Shown: positions 5,765-18,334 of the stretch, one piece after another | How the letters are laid out: each line of letters begins with the position of its first letter | Numbering within the stretch: the first letter of the stretch is position 1 | Source: Mycobacterium tuberculosis H37Rv | Lineage (GTDB): Bacteria > Actinomycetota > Actinomycetes > Mycobacteriales > Mycobacteriaceae | Direction: 5' to 3' | DNA: 32,000 bases | NCBI RefSeq assembly: GCF_000195955.2 | Contig: NC_000962.3 | Coordinates: forward strand, 3,450,001 to 3,482,000 | The notes under the pieces: model-generated | What the model was told of the DNA's origin: nothing | The model's database searches: none | What the model saw: the letters and a program-made list of their open reading frames with translations, nothing else | Translations under genes and position numbers: made by a program

Positions 5765-7272
5765 AGAACATTGGCTGGATGCTCAGACAACGCGCGACCG
5801 TCTCGCCGCGGCTGCAAGCCTACGTCGAGCCGTCCACCGACGTCCGGATGACCTACGCGCAGATGAACGCGCTGGCGAACCGGTGCGCCGACGTGCTCAC
5901 CGCGCTGGGGATCGCCAAGGGCGACCGCGTGGCATTGCTGATGCCCAACAGCGTCGAGTTCTGTTGCCTGTTCTATGGCGCGGCCAAGCTCGGCGCGGTA
6001 GCGGTCCCTATCAACACCCGCCTCGCCGCACCCGAGGTGAGTTTCATCCTGTCCGACAGCGGCAGCAAGGTGGTGATCTACGGTGCGCCGTCGGCGCCGG
6101 TGATCGACGCCATCAGGGCGCAGGCCGACCCTCCGGGCACGGTCACCGACTGGATAGGCGCCGACTCGTTGGCCGAACGCCTGAGGTCGGCGGCCGCAGA
6201 CGAGCCGGCGGTCGAATGCGGCGGCGATGACAACTTGTTCATCATGTACACCTCGGGCACCACCGGACATCCCAAGGGAGTGGTGCATACCCACGAATCG
6301 GTGCATTCGGCGGCCAGTTCCTGGGCCTCGACGATCGACGTGCGCTACCGCGACCGCCTGCTGCTACCGCTGCCGATGTTCCACGTGGCGGCGTTGACGA
6401 CGGTCATCTTCAGCGCCATGCGCGGCGTCACGCTGATCTCGATGCCGCAGTTCGATGCGACGAAGGTGTGGTCACTGATCGTCGAGGAGCGGGTCTGTAT
6501 CGGTGGCGCCGTGCCGGCGATCCTCAACTTCATGCGCCAGGTGCCCGAGTTCGCCGAACTCGACGCGCCCGACTTCCGCTACTTCATCACCGGTGGCGCG
6601 CCCATGCCGGAGGCCCTGATCAAGATCTATGCCGCCAAGAACATCGAGGTCGTGCAGGGTTACGCACTCACCGAATCCTGTGGCGGCGGCACCCTGCTGC
6701 TCAGCGAAGACGCGCTGCGCAAAGCCGGCTCGGCCGGACGCGCCACCATGTTCACCGACGTGGCCGTGCGCGGTGACGACGGCGTGATCCGCGAGCACGG
6801 CGAAGGCGAAGTCGTGATCAAGTCCGACATCCTGCTCAAGGAATACTGGAATCGCCCGGAGGCCACCCGCGACGCTTTCGACAACGGTTGGTTCCGGACC
6901 GGCGACATCGGCGAAATCGATGATGAGGGCTATCTTTACATCAAGGACCGGCTGAAGGACATGATCATTTCCGGCGGCGAGAACGTCTACCCGGCCGAGA
7001 TCGAAAGTGTGATCATCGGCGTTCCCGGGGTCAGCGAGGTGGCGGTCATCGGCTTGCCCGACGAGAAGTGGGGCGAGATCGCCGCCGCCATCGTCGTTGC
7101 CGACCAGAACGAGGTCAGCGAGCAGCAGATCGTCGAGTACTGCGGAACCAGGCTCGCACGCTACAAGCTGCCCAAGAAGGTGATCTTCGCCGAGGCCATC
7201 CCCCGCAACCCGACCGGCAAGATCCTCAAAACGGTGCTGCGCGAACAGTATTCGGCGACGGTGCCGAAGTGA
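5761..7272 (+). CDS. fadD13: Fatty-acyl-CoA/AMP ligase (FadD13, Rv3089-like)
   Basis: The ATG at 5761 overlaps the tgs4 stop (ATGA). AMP-binding signature YTSGTTGHPKGV, plus GYALTE and TGDIGEIDDEGYLYIKDRLKD. 503 aa. Confidence 0.92.
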   Translation: MKNIGWMLRQRATVSPRLQAYVEPSTDVRMTYAQMNALANRCADVLTALGIAKGDRVALLMPNSVEFCCLFYGAAKLGAVAVPINTRLAAPEVSFILSDSGSKVVIYGAPSAPVIDAIRAQADPPGTVTDWIGADSLAERLRSAAADEPAVECGGDDNLFIMYTSGTTGHPKGVVHTHESVHSAASSWASTIDVRYRDRLLLPLPMFHVAALTTVIFSAMRGVTLISMPQFDATKVWSLIVEERVCIGGAVPAILNFMRQVPEFAELDAPDFRYFITGGAPMPEALIKIYAAKNIEVVQGYALTESCGGGTLLLSEDALRKAGSAGRATMFTDVAVRGDDGVIREHGEGEVVIKSDILLKEYWNRPEATRDAFDNGWFRTGDIGEIDDEGYLYIKDRLKDMIISGGENVYPAEIESVIIGVPGVSEVAVIGLPDEKWGEIAAAIVVADQNEVSEQQIVEYCGTRLARYKLPKKVIFAEAIPRNPTGKILKTVLREQYSATVPK

Positions 7273-9115: not shown

Positions 9116-10807
9116 ATGCCGATCCCCTTTGCCGATGGGATGCTCAGCCGGCTGGGTCGCCGCGGGGCAGCGCTCGACCTGATCGAGGAGTTCGAGGACG
9201 AGTCCGGGGAGCCCCCCGCATCCCTGAGCCCCGCCGACCTGCTGGCCGCCGAACCGGCCCTGCTGCTGCAGAAGATGGAGAACCGCCTCGTCCGGCACCA
9301 CCTAGCCAATCCGGACGTGTTGAGCGGCGAACAGCTGCGCAAGCTGCGCTACATCCTCAATTTCGCCAGGCTGGCCGACTTCGAACCGGGGGCCGCGGGG
9401 CCGGGCGGAAGCCGCGGTCGCGGGGACATCTCGGTGGGCGGCCAAGTCGCGCCTTGGCGGTCCCGGGTCGTCGACGCGTTGTACGCACCGCTGCGCGAGG
9501 AGCCCGATCCGGTCACGGCGCTGGAGGGCGCGAAAGACGTGCTGGCGACGCTGGTCGACGACCAGGACGATCAGCGTCGAGTGCTCATCGAGCGCCACGG
9601 CAGCGACTTCTCCGCGACGGAACTCGACGCCGAGGTCGGCTACAAGAAGCTGGTGACCGTCCTCGGCGGCGGCGGGGGCGCGGGCTTCGTCTACATCGGC
9701 GGCATGCAACGGCTGCTGGCGGCCGGCCAGGTGCCCGACTACATGATCGGCTCGTCGTTCGGGTCGATCATCGGCAGCCTGGTGGCCCGTGAACTGCCGG
9801 TGCCGATCGACGAGTACGCCGAGTGGGCCAAAACGGTGTCCTACCGCGCCATCCTGGGCCCGGAGCGGCGGCGCAGCCGCCACGGGTTGGCCGGAATGTT
9901 CACCCTGCGCTTCGACCAGTTCGCCCATACCCTGCTCAGCCGTGCGGACGGCGAACGGATGCGCATGTCGGATCTGGCAATCCCGTTCGATGTCGTCGTC
10001 GCCGGTGTGCGCAGGCAGCCTTATGCGGCGCTGCCGTCCAGGTTCCGCCATCGCGAGCGGTCTACACTGACGTTGCGGTCGCTGCCGTTTCTGCCGATCG
10101 GTATCGGCCCGTGGGTGGCGGCACGCATGTGGCAAGTCGCGGCCTTCATCGACTTGCGGGTGGTCAAGCCGATCGTCATCAGCGCCGACGGCGCGACACG
10201 CGACGTCAACGTCGTTGACGCGGCGTCTTTCTCGTCGGCCATCCCCGGTGTGCTGCACCACGAAACCAGCGACCCGCGGATGCTGCCAATCCTCGACGAG
10301 TTGTGCGCCGACCAGGACGTCGCGGCGATGGTCGACGGCGGCGCGGCCAGCAACGTCCCGGTCGAATTGGCGTGGGAGCGGGTCCGCGACGGGCGGCTCG
10401 GCACCCGCAACGCGTGTTATCTGGCGTTCGACTGCTTCCATCCGCACTGGGACCCCCGACATCTGTGGCTGGTACCGATCACCCAGGCGGTCCAGCTGCA
10501 GATGGTGCGCAACCTGCCCTACGCCGACCACCTCGTCCGATTCGAGCCGACGCTGTCGCCGGTGAACCTGGCGCCGTCCGCGGCGGCCATCGACCGGGCT
10601 TGCCGGTGGGGGCGCGACAGCGTCGAACCGGCGATTGCGGTGACATCGGCGCTGCTGGAGCCGACGTGGTGGGAAGGCGACAGGCCCCCCGCCGCCGAAC
10701 CCAAGGAACGCACAAAGTCGGCGGCCTCGTCGATGAGCGCCGTGATGGCCGCGATTCAGGCGCCGACGGGCCGGTTTCGGCGATGGCGAAGCCGCCACCT
10801 GACCTAG
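9116..10807 (+). CDS. Patatin-like phospholipase (Rv3091-like)
   Basis: ATG at 9116, 17 nt after the SPFH gene. GGGGGAG oxyanion loop, GSSFG (GxSxG) nucleophile, and DGG catalytic Asp (MVDGGAASN). The track ORF 8459-10807 is an in-frame artefactual extension. Confidence 0.85.
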   Translation: MPIPFADGMLSRLGRRGAALDLIEEFEDESGEPPASLSPADLLAAEPALLLQKMENRLVRHHLANPDVLSGEQLRKLRYILNFARLADFEPGAAGPGGSRGRGDISVGGQVAPWRSRVVDALYAPLREEPDPVTALEGAKDVLATLVDDQDDQRRVLIERHGSDFSATELDAEVGYKKLVTVLGGGGGAGFVYIGGMQRLLAAGQVPDYMIGSSFGSIIGSLVARELPVPIDEYAEWAKTVSYRAILGPERRRSRHGLAGMFTLRFDQFAHTLLSRADGERMRMSDLAIPFDVVVAGVRRQPYAALPSRFRHRERSTLTLRSLPFLPIGIGPWVAARMWQVAAFIDLRVVKPIVISADGATRDVNVVDAASFSSAIPGVLHHETSDPRMLPILDELCADQDVAAMVDGGAASNVPVELAWERVRDGRLGTRNACYLAFDCFHPHWDPRHLWLVPITQAVQLQMVRNLPYADHLVRFEPTLSPVNLAPSAAAIDRACRWGRDSVEPAIAVTSALLEPTWWEGDRPPAAEPKERTKSAASSMSAVMAAIQAPTGRFRRWRSRHLT

Positions 10808-10813
10808 CGACGG

Positions 10814-11734
10814 CTACAGGGAACGCGACCTCGGCGGTCGAAAGCAAACCAGGTGCACAAGTGCAACAACAACGATTCCGATCACCAACCCAGTCGCCGC
10901 GCACGCCGCGGTGCTGACCAACCAGGTCAGCGCGCCACCAGCAGACCCCACCAGGTGGTCATCTAGGTGGTGAACCAGGCGGTACGGGGCGTGCCAGCCG
11001 AGGTGGTCGCTGCCCACAAGCACTATGTGGCCGCCCACCCAGAGCATGGCTCCCATCCCGACCGCTGACAGCGCCGATAGCAGTTTGGGCATCCCCGCGA
11101 CCAGGCCCCCGCCGATCCGCTGCCCGAATCGGGACGCGGTCTGGGTGAGGCGCAGGCCGACGTCGTCCATTTGGACGATGACGGCGACGACACCGTACAC
11201 CGCGGCGGTGATGACGAGGGCGACGATGACGAGGACGATGAGGCGCGGCACGAATGGCTGGTCGGCCACCTCGTTGAGGGCGATCACCATGATCTCGGCG
11301 GATAGGATGAAGTCGGTCCGGATCGCCCCGGCCACCAGCTCGCGTTCGGCGACCTGCGGCGCGGCGTCGTGGCCACGGCCGCCGATGACGCCGCACACCT
11401 TTTCGGCGCCCTCGTAGCACAGATACGTGGCGCCCAACATCAGCAGCGGGGTCAACAGCCACGGCACGAGCTGGCTGAGCAGCAATGCACCGGGAAGGAT
11501 GAGCAGCAGCTTGTTGCGCACCGACCCGATCGCGATGCGTTTGATGATCGGCAGCTCACGCTCAGCGGTGATCCGGTGGACGTATTGCGGCGTCACCGCC
11601 GTGTCGTCAATGACCACTCCCGCAGCCTTTGCCGTCGCACGACCGGCGGCGGCGCCGATGTCGTCAATCGAGGCGGCGGCCAGCCGTGCAAGAACCGCGA
11701 CATGGTCCAGCAGTCCGAACAGACCGCCGCTCAT
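10814..11734 (-). CDS. DUF808-family integral membrane protein (Rv3092c-like)
   Basis: Begins MSGGLFGLLDHVAVLARLAAASIDDIG..., typical of YedI/DUF808, with multiple TM segments. Met 171 of the 476-aa track ORF was chosen as the start because the upstream part overlaps the next gene. Confidence 0.75.
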   Translation of the reverse strand: MSGGLFGLLDHVAVLARLAAASIDDIGAAAGRATAKAAGVVIDDTAVTPQYVHRITAERELPIIKRIAIGSVRNKLLLILPGALLLSQLVPWLLTPLLMLGATYLCYEGAEKVCGVIGGRGHDAAPQVAERELVAGAIRTDFILSAEIMVIALNEVADQPFVPRLIVLVIVALVITAAVYGVVAVIVQMDDVGLRLTQTASRFGQRIGGGLVAGMPKLLSALSAVGMGAMLWVGGHIVLVGSDHLGWHAPYRLVHHLDDHLVGSAGGALTWLVSTAACAATGLVIGIVVVALVHLVCFRPPRSRSL

Positions 11735-11759
11735 CGCGACTCCGCCATCACGATCGAGG

Positions 11760-12764
11760 TTACCGTCTGCCGTCGTTGTCGCCAGCGGTGCCGTAGAGCC
11801 CGCCGGGTCGCAGCGCTCGCAGAGCCACCCGGCCCCCCGGGTCTTCAGCGGTGGCGGGCACGACCGCGACGCAATCGGCACCGGCATCCGCGTAGGCGCG
11901 GAGCCGGGCCGCCACTCGATCGGGGCTACCCAACGCACACACCCGGTCGAGCAGTTCGCTGGGGACAGCGACCGCCAGTTCGCGGCGAGTAGCCCGGGAC
12001 CGCGCGCTACGGACCAGGCCGTCGAAACCCAGCGCGCTGAACATTTCGCCATAGCCGGGCGGGGCGAGGTACACCGCCAGCTGAGCTGCCAGCTGGGAGT
12101 GCGCGGCCGCACCGGGGTTGACGGCGACCGGCACGCACACCGTGAGGCGCGGCGCGGCACGGCCGGCCGCGGCGGCTGCGCTGTCGATCGCCGCACGAAC
12201 CCGCCCGACACGGAACGGCGATGCCAGGTTGAGCACGACCTCATCGGCGTGCTGCGCGGCCAGGCGAATCATGCCAGGTCCAAACGCCCCCAACGCAATT
12301 CGCGTATCGGGCGCCGCACCGCGCAGCCGGAATCCGCGGCTGTTGACGTGACGGCCGCTGTATTCGACCCGCGCACCGGTAAATATCGACCGCAGGCATT
12401 CGATGGTTTCGCGCATGACCGGCACGTGGTGCGCCCAAGGTCGGCCATGCCAGCCGGCCACGATCGCCGGACTGGAAGCTCCCAGCGCGAGGTCAACCCG
12501 ACAGCCGGTGAGAGAAGCGACCGAACTGACCCCTAGCGCCAGCCCCACCGGACCGCGAACGCCGACGGCTAGCGGTCCGACCTTCAGCGTCATGTTTGGC
12601 GTGCGGAGCCCGATCGAGGTCGCGAGCGCGAACGCATCGTAGGTCGCCATTTCGCCGATCCACAGCGCAGCGAAACCCGTGTCAGCGGCCGCGAGCGCGA
12701 CATCGGTTGCCTCGTGGTCGGGGCGGTCAAGCCAGAACGGTAGGGCGACTTCGATATCGGTCAT
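11760..12764 (-). CDS. Luciferase-like (flavin/F420-dependent) oxidoreductase (Rv3093c-like)
   Basis: 334-aa ORF whose N-terminus and length resemble the luciferase-like monooxygenase (LLM) family. The start overlaps the upstream stop (ATGA at 12761-12764). Confidence 0.75.
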   Translation of the reverse strand: MTDIEVALPFWLDRPDHEATDVALAAADTGFAALWIGEMATYDAFALATSIGLRTPNMTLKVGPLAVGVRGPVGLALGVSSVASLTGCRVDLALGASSPAIVAGWHGRPWAHHVPVMRETIECLRSIFTGARVEYSGRHVNSRGFRLRGAAPDTRIALGAFGPGMIRLAAQHADEVVLNLASPFRVGRVRAAIDSAAAAAGRAAPRLTVCVPVAVNPGAAAHSQLAAQLAVYLAPPGYGEMFSALGFDGLVRSARSRATRRELAVAVPSELLDRVCALGSPDRVAARLRAYADAGADCVAVVPATAEDPGGRVALRALRPGGLYGTAGDNDGRR

Positions 12765-13891
12765 AGCATCGACACGTCGGCCGGCTGGTCGAGCAGGACA
12801 CGCCCGGGCAGTTCGCGTGATGCCTCGTTGACCTGGAAATGGGCGGTAGCGGTGAATGCGTCGCGGAACCGGCGCTGCAGCGGTGCGTTGTCGTAGATGG
12901 CGGTGCCGCCCGCCAGATCATACATGCTGCGCACCACGTCGGCCGAGGTCCGTACCGCGTGCGTGGCCGCCAACCGCAGCCGGTTGCGCATCGTCACCGG
13001 TACCGCCTCGGCATCGTGGCTGACCTGCCAGGCCGCCTCGATTACCTCGTAGAACAGGGCGCGGGCGGCGCCCAGCGCCGACTCGGCGGTTGCCGCCGCG
13101 GCTTGGGTCGCCGAACGTTCCGCCAAGGTCCGAGTGGACCCAAGCCCTTTCTTGCCGCCGGCCAGCTCGACCAGATCGTCAATCGCGGCGCGCGCATTGC
13201 CCAACGCAGCCGCGCCAATCGACAACGCGAAAAATCCAAACACCGGAAAGCGATACAGCGGCCGGTCCACGATTGGTCCGTCAAACACCGAGAACACGCG
13301 ATCAGCGGGCACGAAGACGTCGTCGGCAACGCAGTCGTGGCTGCCGGTGCCACGCAAACCCAATGTGTGCCAAGTGTCGAGGACCTGCAGCTCGTCCTTG
13401 TTCAGCGCGACGACCGACGGCACTTGCCGGTCGTCGACGAAGCAGCCGGCGAACATGATGTCCGCGTGGTTGATCCCGCTGCAAAACGGCCAGCGTCCGG
13501 ACACCACGACACCGCCGTCGACGGACCGGGCCGTGCCACGTGGCGCCCACACCCCCGCCGCGACACCCCGCCCCCCGCCGAACATTTCCTCGCGGCTGCG
13601 CGCCGGCAGGTAGGCGACCAGCAGGGCACTGGTAATCGCGATCGACACACACCATCCCGCTGACGCGTCACCACGCGCCACCGCCTCGGCGCACCGCAGC
13701 GCCCGCCCGGGTGCCAGCTCCGGCGCCGCAACCTCACGCGGCATGGTGGCGCGCAGCAAGCCGGCCTCGCGCAGCCGGGTCACCAGCTCGTCTGGCAGCC
13801 GACGATCGCGCTCGATTTCCGCGGATCGCGCTCGGGCCCACCGCGCGATCTTCTCGGCGAGGATCTCGATCTCGGTTTCGCTTTGGTTCAC
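12761..13891 (-). CDS. Acyl-CoA-dehydrogenase-fold flavin monooxygenase/dehydrogenase (Rv3094c-like)
   Basis: Acyl-CoA-dehydrogenase-like length and sequence. The GTG at 13891 has AGGAG 6 nt upstream. The longer ATG start at 13948 would place the operator palindrome inside the coding sequence, so it is disfavoured. Confidence 0.75.
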   Translation of the reverse strand: MNQSETEIEILAEKIARWARARSAEIERDRRLPDELVTRLREAGLLRATMPREVAAPELAPGRALRCAEAVARGDASAGWCVSIAITSALLVAYLPARSREEMFGGGRGVAAGVWAPRGTARSVDGGVVVSGRWPFCSGINHADIMFAGCFVDDRQVPSVVALNKDELQVLDTWHTLGLRGTGSHDCVADDVFVPADRVFSVFDGPIVDRPLYRFPVFGFFALSIGAAALGNARAAIDDLVELAGGKKGLGSTRTLAERSATQAAAATAESALGAARALFYEVIEAAWQVSHDAEAVPVTMRNRLRLAATHAVRTSADVVRSMYDLAGGTAIYDNAPLQRRFRDAFTATAHFQVNEASRELPGRVLLDQPADVSML

Positions 13892-13914
13892 GGGCGGCTC
13901 CTGATGACGGTGGC

Positions 13915-13955
13915 GGTTCAATGAAGTTACCACCCTTGGTTCAGTCATTGAACCA
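13915..13955. promoter_or_regulatory. Candidate operator in the divergent Rv3094c-like / HxlR promoter region
   Basis: Perfect 10-bp inverted repeat GGTTCAATGA (13915-13924) / TCATTGAACC (13945-13954), plus a nested palindrome TGGTTCA-gtcat-TGAACCA (13937-13955). That gives three GGTTCA half-sites. Confidence 0.55.
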
Positions 13956-13972
13956 GGTACAGTTGGTGGACC

Positions 13973-14449
13973 ATGGCCGTTTCCGATCTATCCCACCGCT
14001 TCGAAGGGGAGTCGGTCGGCCGGGCGCTCGAGCTAGTCGGTGAACGCTGGACGCTGCTTATCCTGCGTGAGGCGTTCTTCGGGGTGCGGCGGTTCGGTCA
14101 GCTCGCGCGGAACCTTGGCATTCCGCGGCCCACGCTGTCCTCGCGGCTGCGGATGCTCGTCGAGGTGGGTCTTTTTGACCGGGTGCCATATTCCTCCGAC
14201 CCCGAGCGACACGAGTACCGGCTCACCGAAGCGGGCCGCGATCTGTTCGCCGCGATCGTCGTCCTCATGCAGTGGGGGGATGAGTACTTGCCACGCCCAG
14301 AAGGACCACCGATCAAGCTGCGCCACCACACCTGCGGCGAGCACGCCGACCCACGCCTGATCTGTACCCACTGCGGCGAGGAGATCACCGCGCGCAATGT
14401 GACACCTGAACCGGGGCCGGGCTTTAAAGCCAAGCTGGCGTCCTCATAA
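13973..14449 (+). CDS. HxlR-family winged-helix transcriptional regulator (Rv3095-like)
   Basis: 158 aa. GERWTLLILREAFFGVRRFGQLARNLGIPRPTLSSRL is a typical HxlR helix-turn-helix. Divergent from the oxidoreductase operon. Confidence 0.85.
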   Translation: MAVSDLSHRFEGESVGRALELVGERWTLLILREAFFGVRRFGQLARNLGIPRPTLSSRLRMLVEVGLFDRVPYSSDPERHEYRLTEAGRDLFAAIVVLMQWGDEYLPRPEGPPIKLRHHTCGEHADPRLICTHCGEEITARNVTPEPGPGFKAKLASS

Positions 14450-15777: not shown

Positions 15778-17091
15778 TCAGGCGGCGATACCGAGTTGCT
15801 GGTTAATCTGCGGCCAGGACAGCAAACCCCAGGGGGTGAGCAGTATCCAGTCGTGGATTTGCCAGGGGGCCAGTACGAAGCTGAACGGCGCTCCTTGGAC
15901 TACGGCTGTGTGCTCGAGGACAACCGCTTGTTGTGCGAGCGGATCAAGCGAGCCCGAATAGACATACGTCGGCGGAAGACCGTTCAGCGACCCATACAGC
16001 GGACTGACCAGCGGGTCGTTGACCGCAAGATTGCCTGCCCACGCCTGGCTGATCTGCCAGGTCCCCACATCGAGCCACGGGGACAGCAACACCATGGACG
16101 ACGGTACTGGGTTGCCCTGGCTCACCATGTATTGGGCGGCCGCCAGTGCGAGGTTGCCGCCCGCGGAGTCCCCGACCACGCTGACGTTGGAGACCCCGTG
16201 TTGCGCGATTTGCGTGGAGATGAGCCCGGCCATCGCCGGTACTACCGTCCCGGCAGTGCCTCCTTCCTGCACCAACGGGTAAATCGGCACTTGCACGGTC
16301 GCGCCGGTCTGGTAAGCCGTCACCGAGTAGTTGAGCCAGTGGAAGATTGACGGCGGCAGGATAAACGCGCCGCCGTGAATGGCAACCACGTATTCGCCGG
16401 TTGGATGAGCCGGCGTGATCTGCACGACGCTCATCCCGTCATAGGTGGTGTACTGGACCGTCTGTCCCAGCAGCGAGTTCAGCAACGGCGGTGGGGAGTT
16501 GCCAAGAAACCACGACAGCGGCGGTATGTCGCTGGCAATGAGCGCTAAAAGTGGATTGTTTGGGATTGCAAAGTGAGTTTCGAGCGCAGACAAACTCAGC
16601 AGGGGTTTCACCGGCCACAGCGAAGCGATGTCGAATCCGGCAGCCCCTGACGGCGTGCCGGTGAAGATCCCTGCCTGCGCCGCCGCGAAAGGCGGAACCT
16701 GCGTGAATCCGGCGGCCAGCGCCGTGGGGGCCCGCTGAATTTCCTGGTGAATCGTGGCAAAACCGTTCCCGATACCGCTGGCGAATTCACTCTGCAACAG
16801 CGAAGCGTTGGCCAGCTCGGCGGCGGCATACCCCTTGGCCGCGCCTGTCAATGCCTGCACAAACCGCTCATGAAACACCGCAAGCTGTGCGCTAAGAGCT
16901 TGATAGTCCTGACCATGGCCGGAAAACAAAGCCGCGATCGCGGCTGACACCTCGTCCTCGGCAGCGGCTAATACCGTCGTGGTGGCACCCGCGACACCCT
17001 GGCTCGCCGTCGCGACCACCGAACCAATCGAAGCCACGTCTGTGGCCGCGGCGGACATCACCTCCGGCAACGCAACAACATAAGACACCAC
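15778..17091 (-). CDS. lipY: PE-domain triacylglycerol lipase LipY (PE30, Rv3097c-like)
   Basis: GTG start. N-terminal PE domain (MVSYVVALPEVMSAAATDVASIG...). C-terminal HSL-family lipase with HGGAF and GDSAGG. Confidence 0.92.
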   Translation of the reverse strand: MVSYVVALPEVMSAAATDVASIGSVVATASQGVAGATTTVLAAAEDEVSAAIAALFSGHGQDYQALSAQLAVFHERFVQALTGAAKGYAAAELANASLLQSEFASGIGNGFATIHQEIQRAPTALAAGFTQVPPFAAAQAGIFTGTPSGAAGFDIASLWPVKPLLSLSALETHFAIPNNPLLALIASDIPPLSWFLGNSPPPLLNSLLGQTVQYTTYDGMSVVQITPAHPTGEYVVAIHGGAFILPPSIFHWLNYSVTAYQTGATVQVPIYPLVQEGGTAGTVVPAMAGLISTQIAQHGVSNVSVVGDSAGGNLALAAAQYMVSQGNPVPSSMVLLSPWLDVGTWQISQAWAGNLAVNDPLVSPLYGSLNGLPPTYVYSGSLDPLAQQAVVLEHTAVVQGAPFSFVLAPWQIHDWILLTPWGLLSWPQINQQLGIAA

Positions 17092-17242
17092 GCCGCTCCC
17101 GCCACCTCACGGCAACTTCCCCAGTTGCCCAGCCACTACCGATCGCCGAGTAGCCGGAGCTTATGCCCACGCCGAGTAGTCACGTGCCAGTTTGCGCGAA
17201 TTCCCAAAGTTAGACCGGCAAACGTGACGGCACCGATCCGTG

Positions 17243-17266
17243 TGGTGCAGCCGCCGGGAATCGAAC
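17243..17266 (-). repeat. Orphan tRNA-like 3' fragment (T-loop + 3' T-stem + acceptor + CCA), a direct repeat of the ssrA 3' end. Candidate att remnant.
   Basis: The minus strand reads GTTCGATTCCCGGCGGCTGCACCA. Positions 17244-17266 match 17968-17990 at 21 of 23 positions in the same orientation. No matching 5' T-stem or 5' acceptor lies upstream, so it is not a complete tRNA. Confidence 0.6.
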
Positions 17267-17411
17267 ACTCTCCGACGCAAAACGACCTGCGATTACGCGC
17301 GGGGCGTTGATGGCGTCAAGAAGGAATGAGGCGGCGAACGCGGGCGTTGGGGTGCCGCTATGCGTTGAACAATTGCTATACGATTGTGCAACATCAGCTA
17401 TCGTCGTACTC

Positions 17412-17612
17412 ATGACCGCGACCATCGGCTTCCGACCTACTGAAAAAGACGAGCAGATCATCAACGCCGCAATGCGCAGCGGCGAGCGCAAGAGCGACGT
17501 CATCCGGCGGGCACTGCAGCTGCTCGAACGGGAAGTGTGGATCAAGCAAGCTCGCACCGACGCTGAGCGACTTCGAGACGAGGATGTCTCCACTGAACCG
17601 GACGCGTGGTGA
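17412..17612 (+). CDS. Ribbon-helix-helix (CopG/MazE-like) antitoxin
   Basis: 66 aa: [38 protein letters not shown].... The stop overlaps the toxin start (GTGGTGA). Confidence 0.75.
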
Positions 17613-17926
17613 TTCGGGGAGCGGTCTACAGGGTCGACTTCGGCGATGCGAAGCGAGGCCACGAGCAACGCGGGCGGCGCTACGCCGTGGTCATCAGCCC
17701 CGGCTCGATGCCGTGGAGTGTAGTAACCGTGGTGCCGACGTCGACAAGCGCCCAACCTGCGGTTTTCCGACCAGAGCTGGAAGTCATGGGAACAAAGACA
17801 CGGTTCCTGGTGGATCAGATCCGGACGATCGGCATCGTCTATGTGCACGGCGATCCGGTCGACTATCTGGACCGTGACCAAATGGCCAAGGTGGAACACG
17901 CCGTGGCACGATACCTTGGTCTGTGA
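17606..17926 (+). CDS. MazF/PemK-family endoribonuclease toxin (Rv3098A-like)
   Basis: 106 aa with PemK hallmarks: [28 protein letters not shown] ... VVPTSTS ... LVDQIRTI. Confidence 0.8.
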
Positions 17927-17946
17927 TGGCCGTCGCATCTGCAAAT

Positions 17947-17964
17947 GGGCCACCGACCTGGCCC
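17947..17964 (-). terminator. Weak hairpin just 3' of the tmRNA gene
   Basis: GGGCCA-ggtcgg-TGGCCC on the minus strand, followed by ATTTGC. It begins 4 nt after the tmRNA 3' end. Confidence 0.3.
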
Positions 17965-17967
17965 TTC

Positions 17968-18334
17968 GGTGGAGCTGCCGGGAATCGAACCCGGGTCCTA
18001 CGGCATTCCCTCAAGGCTTCTCCGTGCGCAGTTCGCTATGCCTCTGCTCGGATCTCCCGGTCACGCGAACTAGCCGAGATGACGATCCCAGTCGCTGTGG
18101 TTGTCCCGAGGAGTCCCGCGACCGGACTCATCGGTGGATCCCTCTAGCTGATGCCAGGGTCCGGGCCGAGGGCGTTCCCGGTCTGACAGACTAGCCGTCG
18201 CTTAGGCAGCGAGAGCGTAGTCGCGCTGATGTGAATCGGCGCTTATTTGGTCGCAACGACGCTTACGGTGGTCTCTTGCCTGCACCGGCACGCTTCCCTT
18301 GATTCGATGCGCGAAGTCGAAACCGTTCAGCCCC
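17968..18334 (-). ncRNA. ssrA: tmRNA (SsrA)
   Basis: 5' GGGGCTGAACGGTTTCGAC and 3' GGGTTCGATTCCCGGCAGCTCCACC form a tRNA-Ala-like domain with G3:U. The internal tag ORF at 18202-18240 encodes ADSHQRDYALAA followed by a stop. Confidence 0.95.

Follow-up and report, generated by a model that had tools for sequence, protein, structure and literature searches.

A degenerate copy of the tmRNA 3′ end beside mazEF-mt11 of Mycobacterium tuberculosis is probably a relic of integration at ssrA

In the 32-kb stretch of the Mycobacterium tuberculosis H37Rv chromosome that was analyzed (NC_000962.3, positions 3,450,001 to 3,482,000; "the window", to which all M. tuberculosis coordinates refer), the 3′ end of ssrA, the gene for transfer-messenger RNA (tmRNA), is repeated in degenerate form further downstream. 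The sole genes between the two copies are mazEF-mt11, a toxin-antitoxin (TA) pair that consists of the toxin Rv3098A and its antitoxin. The distal copy (17243–17266) is probably a relic attachment (att) site left by the insertion of an element with mazEF-mt11 at the ssrA 3′ end, the integrase of which has since disappeared. A sequence-only reading of the window had proposed such an attL/attR-type footprint of an ssrA-integrated TA islet that is now devoid of an integrase, and this proposal is supported by empty sites in relatives, by the confinement of core copies to the region downstream of ssrA in the mycobacterial loci sampled, and by cognate integrases. Site-specific integration as such is a textbook phenomenon. 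It is newly documented for this locus, and no report of the repeat, or of an origin of Rv3098A by integration at ssrA, was found in the searchable literature.

The ssrA 3′ end and its displaced copy

The genes ftsX, smpB, Rv3099c, and ssrA follow each other on the minus strand. Beyond ssrA lie mazEF-mt11 (plus strand), lipY (minus strand), and Rv3096. Read on the plus strand, the end of ssrA is GGTGGAGCTGCCGGGAATCGAAC (17968–17990), and it recurs as GGTGCAGCCGCCGGGAATCGAAC (17244–17266) in the same orientation with 21 of 23 nucleotides identical. The two copies, called proximal and distal core, are 724 nt apart from start to start and are separated by 701 nt. When up to three mismatches were allowed, the window contained no other matches, and 100 dinucleotide-preserving shuffles yielded none at all. 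Even with up to seven mismatches, no further degenerate copies were found above chance in the window. The repeat is borne out as it had been described, including its placement downstream of ssrA, which is correct as ssrA is encoded on the minus strand. In a second assembly of the M. tuberculosis complex (L174), which is 99.97% identical over 12.3 kb, the distal core is present as well.

According to the Rfam structure line, the repeated block starts with the last G of the 5′ T-stem strand and continues through the T-loop (UUCGAUU), the 3′ T-stem strand (CCCGG), and the acceptor 3′ strand (CAGCUCC) to the discriminator A and CC. The similarity ends abruptly 5′ of the last T-stem G. Both substitutions in the distal copy are in the acceptor strand (CAGCUCC to CgGCUgC), and the T-loop and T-stem are unchanged. 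The A at 17243 after the distal copy completes a CCA, while ssrA itself reads CCG. The distal copy lacks a 5′ half, no RNA model matches it, and it has no known function of its own; its earlier description as an end with a full CCA that is not a gene was therefore correct. Neither ARAGORN nor Rfam (E up to 10) revealed tRNA or tmRNA homology at 17100–17450, and hence nothing indicates a longer tRNA pseudogene that extends beyond the T-loop.

Core copies and islets in mycobacterial loci

The locus was compared with the best 80 of more than 531 SmpB-anchored mycobacterial loci and with three close relatives that were retrieved via Rv3099c orthologues; M. kansasii, M. canettii, M. lacus, and M. 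riyadhense lie outside this sample. In the 83 loci, which comprise 1.475 Mb, a search with a 22-mer of the core and up to three mismatches retrieved 69 ssrA ends and 12 extra copies. All 12 extra copies are downstream of ssrA on the same strand, at distances of 0.9–6.7 kb, and none was found elsewhere. The core is therefore not a generic T-arm sequence. The proximal core of M. tuberculosis is identical to the ssrA end in 69 mycobacterial loci and to the attP core of the Cluster K phages Validus and Milly.

Core-bounded islets without an integrase turned out to be common. They are 0.9–7 kb long and mostly below the size needed for an integrase, and their cargo includes a Phd/YefM-ParE pair (L040), an aldose epimerase, a short-chain dehydrogenase, a Ser/Thr kinase, a PE-lipase, and lipY together with a cyclic nucleoside monophosphate-binding protein (L001). 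The case of L040, a mycobacterial metagenome-assembled genome (MAG), is similar to that of M. tuberculosis: an unrelated TA pair, a Phd/YefM antitoxin and a ParE toxin, is alone between ssrA and a core repeat (11815–12705). A second islet follows beyond this TA islet and is closed by a third core copy at 16555. In L001, also a MAG, lipY itself lies within a core-bounded islet directly after ssrA (11983–14198).

Empty sites, other cargo, and the same cassette in relatives

In three relatives the site is empty, as the integration hypothesis had predicted. In M. shinjukuense (L091) ssrA is followed after about 190 bp by lipY with a PPE domain, and in L001 it is followed after about 135 bp by lipY with a PE domain and with the same upstream sequence as in M. 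tuberculosis; neither interval contains a TA pair or a core copy. M. marinum (L090) has a single core copy and no TA pair.

The closest relative in the sample, M. decipiens (L089; smpB identity at four-fold sites 86%), carries different cargo in this slot. A full-length candidate defence ATPase, HEC-04 (PADLOC, E = 5e-219; 9773–11260), is followed by a degenerate core with three mismatches (11555–11576) and then by the N-terminal stub of an integrase (11689–11915).

M. gastri (L011) and L006 carry the TA cassette itself, with amino acid identities of 92–97%, and in both it is joined to ssrA by the same junction of core, hairpin, and toxin stop codon. In the metagenome contig L092 the cassette (97% identity at the amino acid level, 91% at the nucleotide level) abuts a perfect core copy that belongs to no ssrA. 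This fits a cassette that was pushed outward, deeper into an array, by a later arrival. In L175 the cassette is 4.7 kb away from ssrA and has no adjacent core.

Divergence and distribution of the TA pair

At four-fold degenerate sites, mazEF of M. tuberculosis is 81–83% identical to that of L011, L006, and L092, whereas the identities of the flanking genes (smpB, Rv3099c, ftsX, lipY, and Rv3096) are only 55–64%. The difference is significant in all three comparisons (Fisher's exact test, p = 7.5e-4 for L011, 9.7e-4 for L006, and 5.6e-6 for L092). By this measure of synonymous divergence, the TA pair is younger than its flanks. The divergence corresponds to a drift of about 10% per lineage, which would lead to about two changes in 23 neutral nucleotides, and two were observed in the distal core.

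The distribution of the TA pair is patchy. Equally compact pairs with 72–89% amino acid identity were found, in unrelated contexts, in Jiangella, Microlunatus, Streptomyces, Crossiella, and Streptosporangiales, and this distribution clearly points to a mobile module. Homologues of mazEF-mt11 were found neither in the phage collection nor on IMG/VR contigs, and matches on plasmids were just 41–44% identical. In Crossiella equi (L084/L085) about 160 bp separate the end of the TA homologue from a tRNA-Leu(TAG) gene (6476–6551), and in Streptomyces inhibens (L083) it lies 4.5 kb downstream of ssrA (988–1355). These two may represent further insertions that are linked to RNA genes.

Integrases and phages that use the ssrA core

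K1 mycobacteriophages lysogenize M. tuberculosis and use the tmRNA gene as their integration site; the 24-bp common core is at the extreme 3′ end of this gene and has a terminator beside it (PMC3203893). This part of ssrA is matched by 206 Mycobacterium phage records. The phage matches to the distal copy are confined to the 23–24-bp core and show no homology to its flanks.

Integrase genes occur at the same position in phages and in bacterial loci. In the phages Validus and Milly the integrase gene starts 88 nt past the attP core, and in the mycobacterial loci integrase homologues start 77–91 nt after the ssrA core. Two loci (L043 and L055) have an intact integrase at ssrA, with genes for RusA-like and major head proteins close by. 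The integrase of L023 is frameshifted and has a primase-like gene close by, and in L031 and L050 N-terminal stubs of integrases are left at ssrA. One further locus, L094, has a TA pair that is 88% identical and a weak integrase-like match 2.5 kb away. It was rejected as a case of linkage to ssrA because the locus contains neither a core copy nor a tmRNA or tRNA gene.

A model for the origin of the islet

The favored explanation comprises the following steps. An element with mazEF-mt11 would have recombined with the 22–24-bp core at the ssrA 3′ end, and the recombinase would have been a tyrosine integrase of the Cluster K mycobacteriophage kind that acts in or next to the T-loop. The incoming element would have supplied its own core and a terminator hairpin (17947–17990), and because it carried both, ssrA would have been kept intact. 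The former ssrA 3′ end would have been displaced 724 bp downstream to its place beside lipY, where it later drifted by two substitutions, so that the distal core would be the older of the two copies. At last the integrase, which presumably was once part of the element, would have been lost, and the TA pair, which is resistant to loss, would have stayed in an islet that is now inert DNA. A single event would therefore lie behind the insertion of the TA pair and the distal copy.

Several results weigh against this model. The homology between the cassettes stops 40–75 nt short of the M. tuberculosis distal copy, and therefore the link between the arrival of the TA pair and the copy is inferred. 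The evidence for a distal copy in the other TA-bearing loci was not convincing (local-alignment tests, p about 0.03 for L006, about 0.1 for L092, and not significant for L011), and the right-hand flanks of the four cassettes are too divergent to place degenerate copies reliably by alignment. In addition, the four younger-than-flank cassettes share an integrase-less junction, which implies that the loss of the integrase preceded their spread or that the element never had one. The absence of an integrase from the interval had been noted before, and indeed no integrase or remnant was detected in or beside the islet at E < 1e-3, and searches of the window at E up to 50 retrieved only noise. Pairs of K-type arm sites were not found in the islet, and a single arm-like heptamer within mazE is uninformative. 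An element with both an integrase and this TA pair was not found among the phages, viral contigs, plasmids, and loci compared. Integrase-bearing elements with the same core do exist at ssrA in mycobacteria and in phages, as had been anticipated, but this TA pair was not found in them. Lastly, the compositional anomaly of the islet is weak. The G+C content of the 701-bp interval is 60.8%, in comparison to 64.7% for the window, which places it in the 16th percentile of 701-bp windows, and the G+C content at third codon positions is 0.72, in comparison to 0.80–0.82 for smpB, Rv3099c, and ftsX. The low values that had been counted for two 60-nt stretches (46.7% and 55.0%) are right, but a strong compositional contrast does not exist.

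Alternative explanations

A different history, which we regard as possible but doubtful, is that the cassette is an att-flanked mini-element similar to cis-mobilizable elements (CIMEs), which never had an integrase or lost it once before its spread, and which is moved in trans by ssrA-specific integrases of phages, satellites, or islands. The integrase-less junction (core, hairpin, 20 nt, toxin stop codon) is identical in M. tuberculosis, L006, L011, and L092, and the TA pair is younger than the flanks in all of them. The spread of such a junction by two-sided homologous replacement is unlikely because the right-hand neighbors of the cassette differ (PE-lipY, PPE-lipY, or YkuD). The numerous other small integrase-less islets fit as well, and CIMEs are defined as att-flanked decayed elements that are mobilized by accretion (PMC7563491). 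However, the missing arm-site pairs argue also against mobilization in trans, a clear distal core is missing in three of the four cassettes, and neither a free form nor a tandem composite with an integrase-bearing element was seen. Moreover, the low synonymous divergence may have other causes.

An extension of this idea, put forward only tentatively, is that mycobacteria have an exchange slot directly behind ssrA, in which tiny core-flanked addiction or anti-phage cassettes without an integrase replace each other and from which they spread horizontally with the borrowed tmRNA-specific integrases of Cluster K-type phages or satellites. MazEF-mt11 occupies the slot in M. tuberculosis, M. gastri, and others, Phd-ParE was found there in L040, and HEC-04 in M. 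decipiens. As the T-loop and T-stem part is intact in both M. tuberculosis cores, a tmRNA-integrating phage might still excise or move the islet, and MazEF-mt11 might be active against such phages.

It is rather unlikely that the distal copy stems from another, earlier integration event, for example as the boundary of a lipY cassette or of a vanished element, and that the TA pair arrived separately, for example by replacing former cargo. The gap between the end of the cassette homology and the copy would be explained, and in M. gastri the TA pair and the same region upstream of lipY occur without a recognizable copy. Furthermore, lipY of L001 lies in its own core-bounded islet, and the slot of M. 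decipiens is filled by other cargo, HEC-04. Nevertheless, gene-proximal integration always leaves a copy on the far side of the newcomer, exactly as is seen here, and the two changes in 23 nt match the divergence of the TA pair itself. In addition, the TA-less relatives that were examined have no copy between ssrA and lipY.

The adjacency of the TA pair and ssrA could also be due to selection for coupling of a ribonuclease toxin and ribosome rescue, and not to a preference for the integration site. Cleavage of mRNAs by MazF-type toxins yields non-stop messages that are rescued by tmRNA, and the adjacency recurs in three mycobacterial lineages. A functional link of this kind between an mRNA interferase and tmRNA had been suggested by the sequence-only reading. 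It is very improbable, as MazF-mt11 is an endoribonuclease that cuts the anti-Shine-Dalgarno end off 16S rRNA, and the 16S rRNA 3′ end is its sole reported target in mycobacteria (PMC12274833). Moreover, close homologues in other actinobacteria are mostly far from ssrA, other species have unrelated cargo in this slot, and the cassette no longer adjoins ssrA in L092 and L175. The suggested link thus lacks support, and the integration site is sufficient to explain why the pair is next to ssrA.

Lastly, a chance similarity, a generic tRNA T-arm, or a fragment of a tRNA or tmRNA pseudogene is effectively refuted: although GGTTCGA(A/T)TCC is common to the T-arms of many tRNAs and tmRNA mimics tRNA-Ala, the 3′ end of which matches the core at four mismatches in L044 and L047, the match to ssrA is better (two mismatches), and the shuffles, the lack of an Rfam or ARAGORN match at the site, and the restriction of copies to the region downstream of ssrA on the same strand in 1.475 Mb all speak against it.

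Features of the islet

The coordinates of the islet and its surroundings are summarized in Table 1.

Table 1. Features of the ssrA-lipY region of M. tuberculosis H37Rv (window coordinates)
Feature	Position	Strand	Evidence or remark
ssrA (tmRNA gene), tag peptide ADSHQRDYALAA	17968 (17967)–18334	-	ARAGORN; Rfam RF00023, 133.6 bits, full length
Proximal core (attL-type), functional ssrA 3′ end	17968–17990	-	Sequence repeat and Rfam structure line
Distal core (probable attR-type relic), GTTCGATTCCCGGCgGCTgCACCA, without 5′ half	17243–17266	-	Repeat match; no RNA model matches
Hairpin GGGCCA-N6-UGGCCC, followed by AUUUG	17947–17964	-	Fold; 3 nt past the ssrA end, 20 nt before the toxin stop codon
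mazF-mt11 (Rv3098A), toxin of the PemK/MazF fold	17606–17926	+	Pfam PF02452, E = 4e-16
mazE-mt11, antitoxin, 66 aa, start codon ATG 17412	17412–17612	+	66-aa partner conserved beside every toxin homologue examined
Operator-like inverted repeat TTGAACAATTG-CTATA-CGATTGTGCAA, upstream of mazE	17365–17391		Read from sequence
M. tuberculosis-specific spacer between the end of the cassette homology and the distal core	17267–17330		Homology to L006, L011, and L092 ends at about 17300–17330 in alignments
lipY (PE-lipase), neighbor of the distal core	15778–17091	-	Upstream region, about 17092–17205, common to L001 and M. gastri

The hairpin after the proximal core is likely to be an ssrA terminator that came with the element and also serves the convergent toxin gene. 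L006, L011, and L092 have the same arrangement of core, hairpin, and toxin gene, and phage attP regions have a hairpin at the same place. Its fold alone is not better than those of shuffled sequences (z = -0.87). The 10–12 nt after most core copies (L001–L092) are purine-rich and lead into a GC hairpin, for example cgAGAAaGnnGC or gaaGGGCC, and it appears that each cassette brought its own ssrA terminator. A hairpin past the distal copy was considered as a relic terminator and was discarded, as its fold was also no better than those of shuffles.

The true start codon of mazF-mt11, judging from the homologues, is probably GTG 17609. This would result in a protein of 105 aa, the length found in most homologues, and in a 4-bp GTGA overlap with the stop codon of the antitoxin gene. 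In all homologues examined, a 66-aa upstream partner overlaps the toxin gene by 4–7 nt. The antitoxin has no Pfam match, and a ParD-like NCBIfam match of the ribbon-helix-helix (RHH) type is weak and below the cut-off (E = 0.012). Of the earlier annotation as an RHH antitoxin and a PemK/MazF toxin, the toxin is thus confirmed, and the RHH class has only this sub-threshold match behind it. A paper of 2025 places MazE-mt11 at 3467307–3467612 (PMC12274833), which corresponds to the open reading frame (ORF) 17307–17612 of the window. This 101-aa ORF starts with TTG 17307 in DNA that the other copies of the cassette do not share, and the conserved form has 66 aa. The inverted repeat upstream of mazE hardly varies among the four mycobacterial cassette copies and would be expected to have a regulatory role. 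An antisense ORF of 247 aa on the minus strand (17210–17953) covers the whole islet and the distal core; it is most likely spurious and held open by the TA genes on the opposite strand.

Comparison with known systems and implications

The islet shares with the Cluster K (K1) phages Adephagia, CrimD, and Validus the 22–24-bp core at the extreme ssrA 3′ end and the terminator hairpin next to it. In contrast to the phages, it is only 0.7 kb long; an integrase, phage genes, and recognizable arm-type sites are all missing, and its MazEF cargo has no homologue in the phage collection. As it does not contain an integrase gene, it is not an intact genomic island or prophage. Islands at tRNA and tmRNA genes have reportedly been treated by Williams in 2002 and 2003, with sublocation classes and "traffic at the tmRNA gene". 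They have in common with the locus described here an intact gene, cargo, and a displaced partial gene copy, and newer arrivals push older ones outward. Scattered fragmented integrases and partial tRNA copies are also typical of them, and the mycobacterial ssrA arrays match this description. An additive island model has been proposed for the tycheposons of Prochlorococcus (bioRxiv 10.1101/2020.12.28.424599). The differences are that another integrase lineage and another host are involved, and that the mycobacterial cassettes are very small and several of them carry TA or defence-type genes.

Streptococcal CIMEs are similar to the islet in that they are small, are flanked by att sites on both sides, lack genes for recombination and transfer, have kept their cargo, and form arrays at the 3′ end of a conserved gene (PMC7563491). 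However, CIMEs derive from integrative and conjugative or integrative and mobilizable elements and conjugate after accretion, whereas such an origin and such mobility would be hypothetical for the islet, and one of its att copies is degenerate (two mismatches). Other TA modules of M. tuberculosis are stated to lie in genomic islands (PMC4906023). The islet resembles them as a horizontally acquired type II pair in a region of slightly lower G+C content. In contrast to those modules, the islet has an integration site, an att scar, and a likely integrase family that can be named.

M. tuberculosis has roughly 70 TA systems, and the favored model offers a concrete origin for one of them: MazEF-mt11 would have been acquired by site-specific integration at ssrA, after the split from those relatives that lack it. 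It would also follow that an ancestor of M. tuberculosis, a species that is now free of intact prophages, had encountered integrases that are specific for tmRNA genes and belong to the Cluster K phage type. Vectors that are built on Cluster K-type tmRNA integrases are used in M. tuberculosis genetics, and a second, near-perfect core at a distance of 724 bp could matter for such vectors. More generally, the mycobacterial stretch downstream of ssrA, including lipY, appears to be an array of accreted cassettes, several of which carry TA or defence-type cargo.

Additional observations

The N-terminal domain of lipY is of the PE type in M. tuberculosis, L001, and M. gastri, and of the PPE type in L006 and M. 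shinjukuense. This difference points to a domain swap at the locus.

A few observations concern the tmRNA genes of the sample. In two Mycolicibacter loci (L044, 11407–11797, and L047, 12267–12657) the tmRNA tag is unusually long and internally repeated (AKVALTPAKVALQSDFALAA), in comparison to ADSHQRDYALAA in most mycobacteria. Extra, overlapping ARAGORN calls of a "permuted tmRNA" beside a normal ssrA in L020 (14294–15149) and L059 (13464–14340) are probably artefacts. L060 is labelled as a MAG of an uncultured gammaproteobacterium, yet its smpB, Rv3099c, and ssrA are of the mycobacterial type, and it is probably mis-binned.

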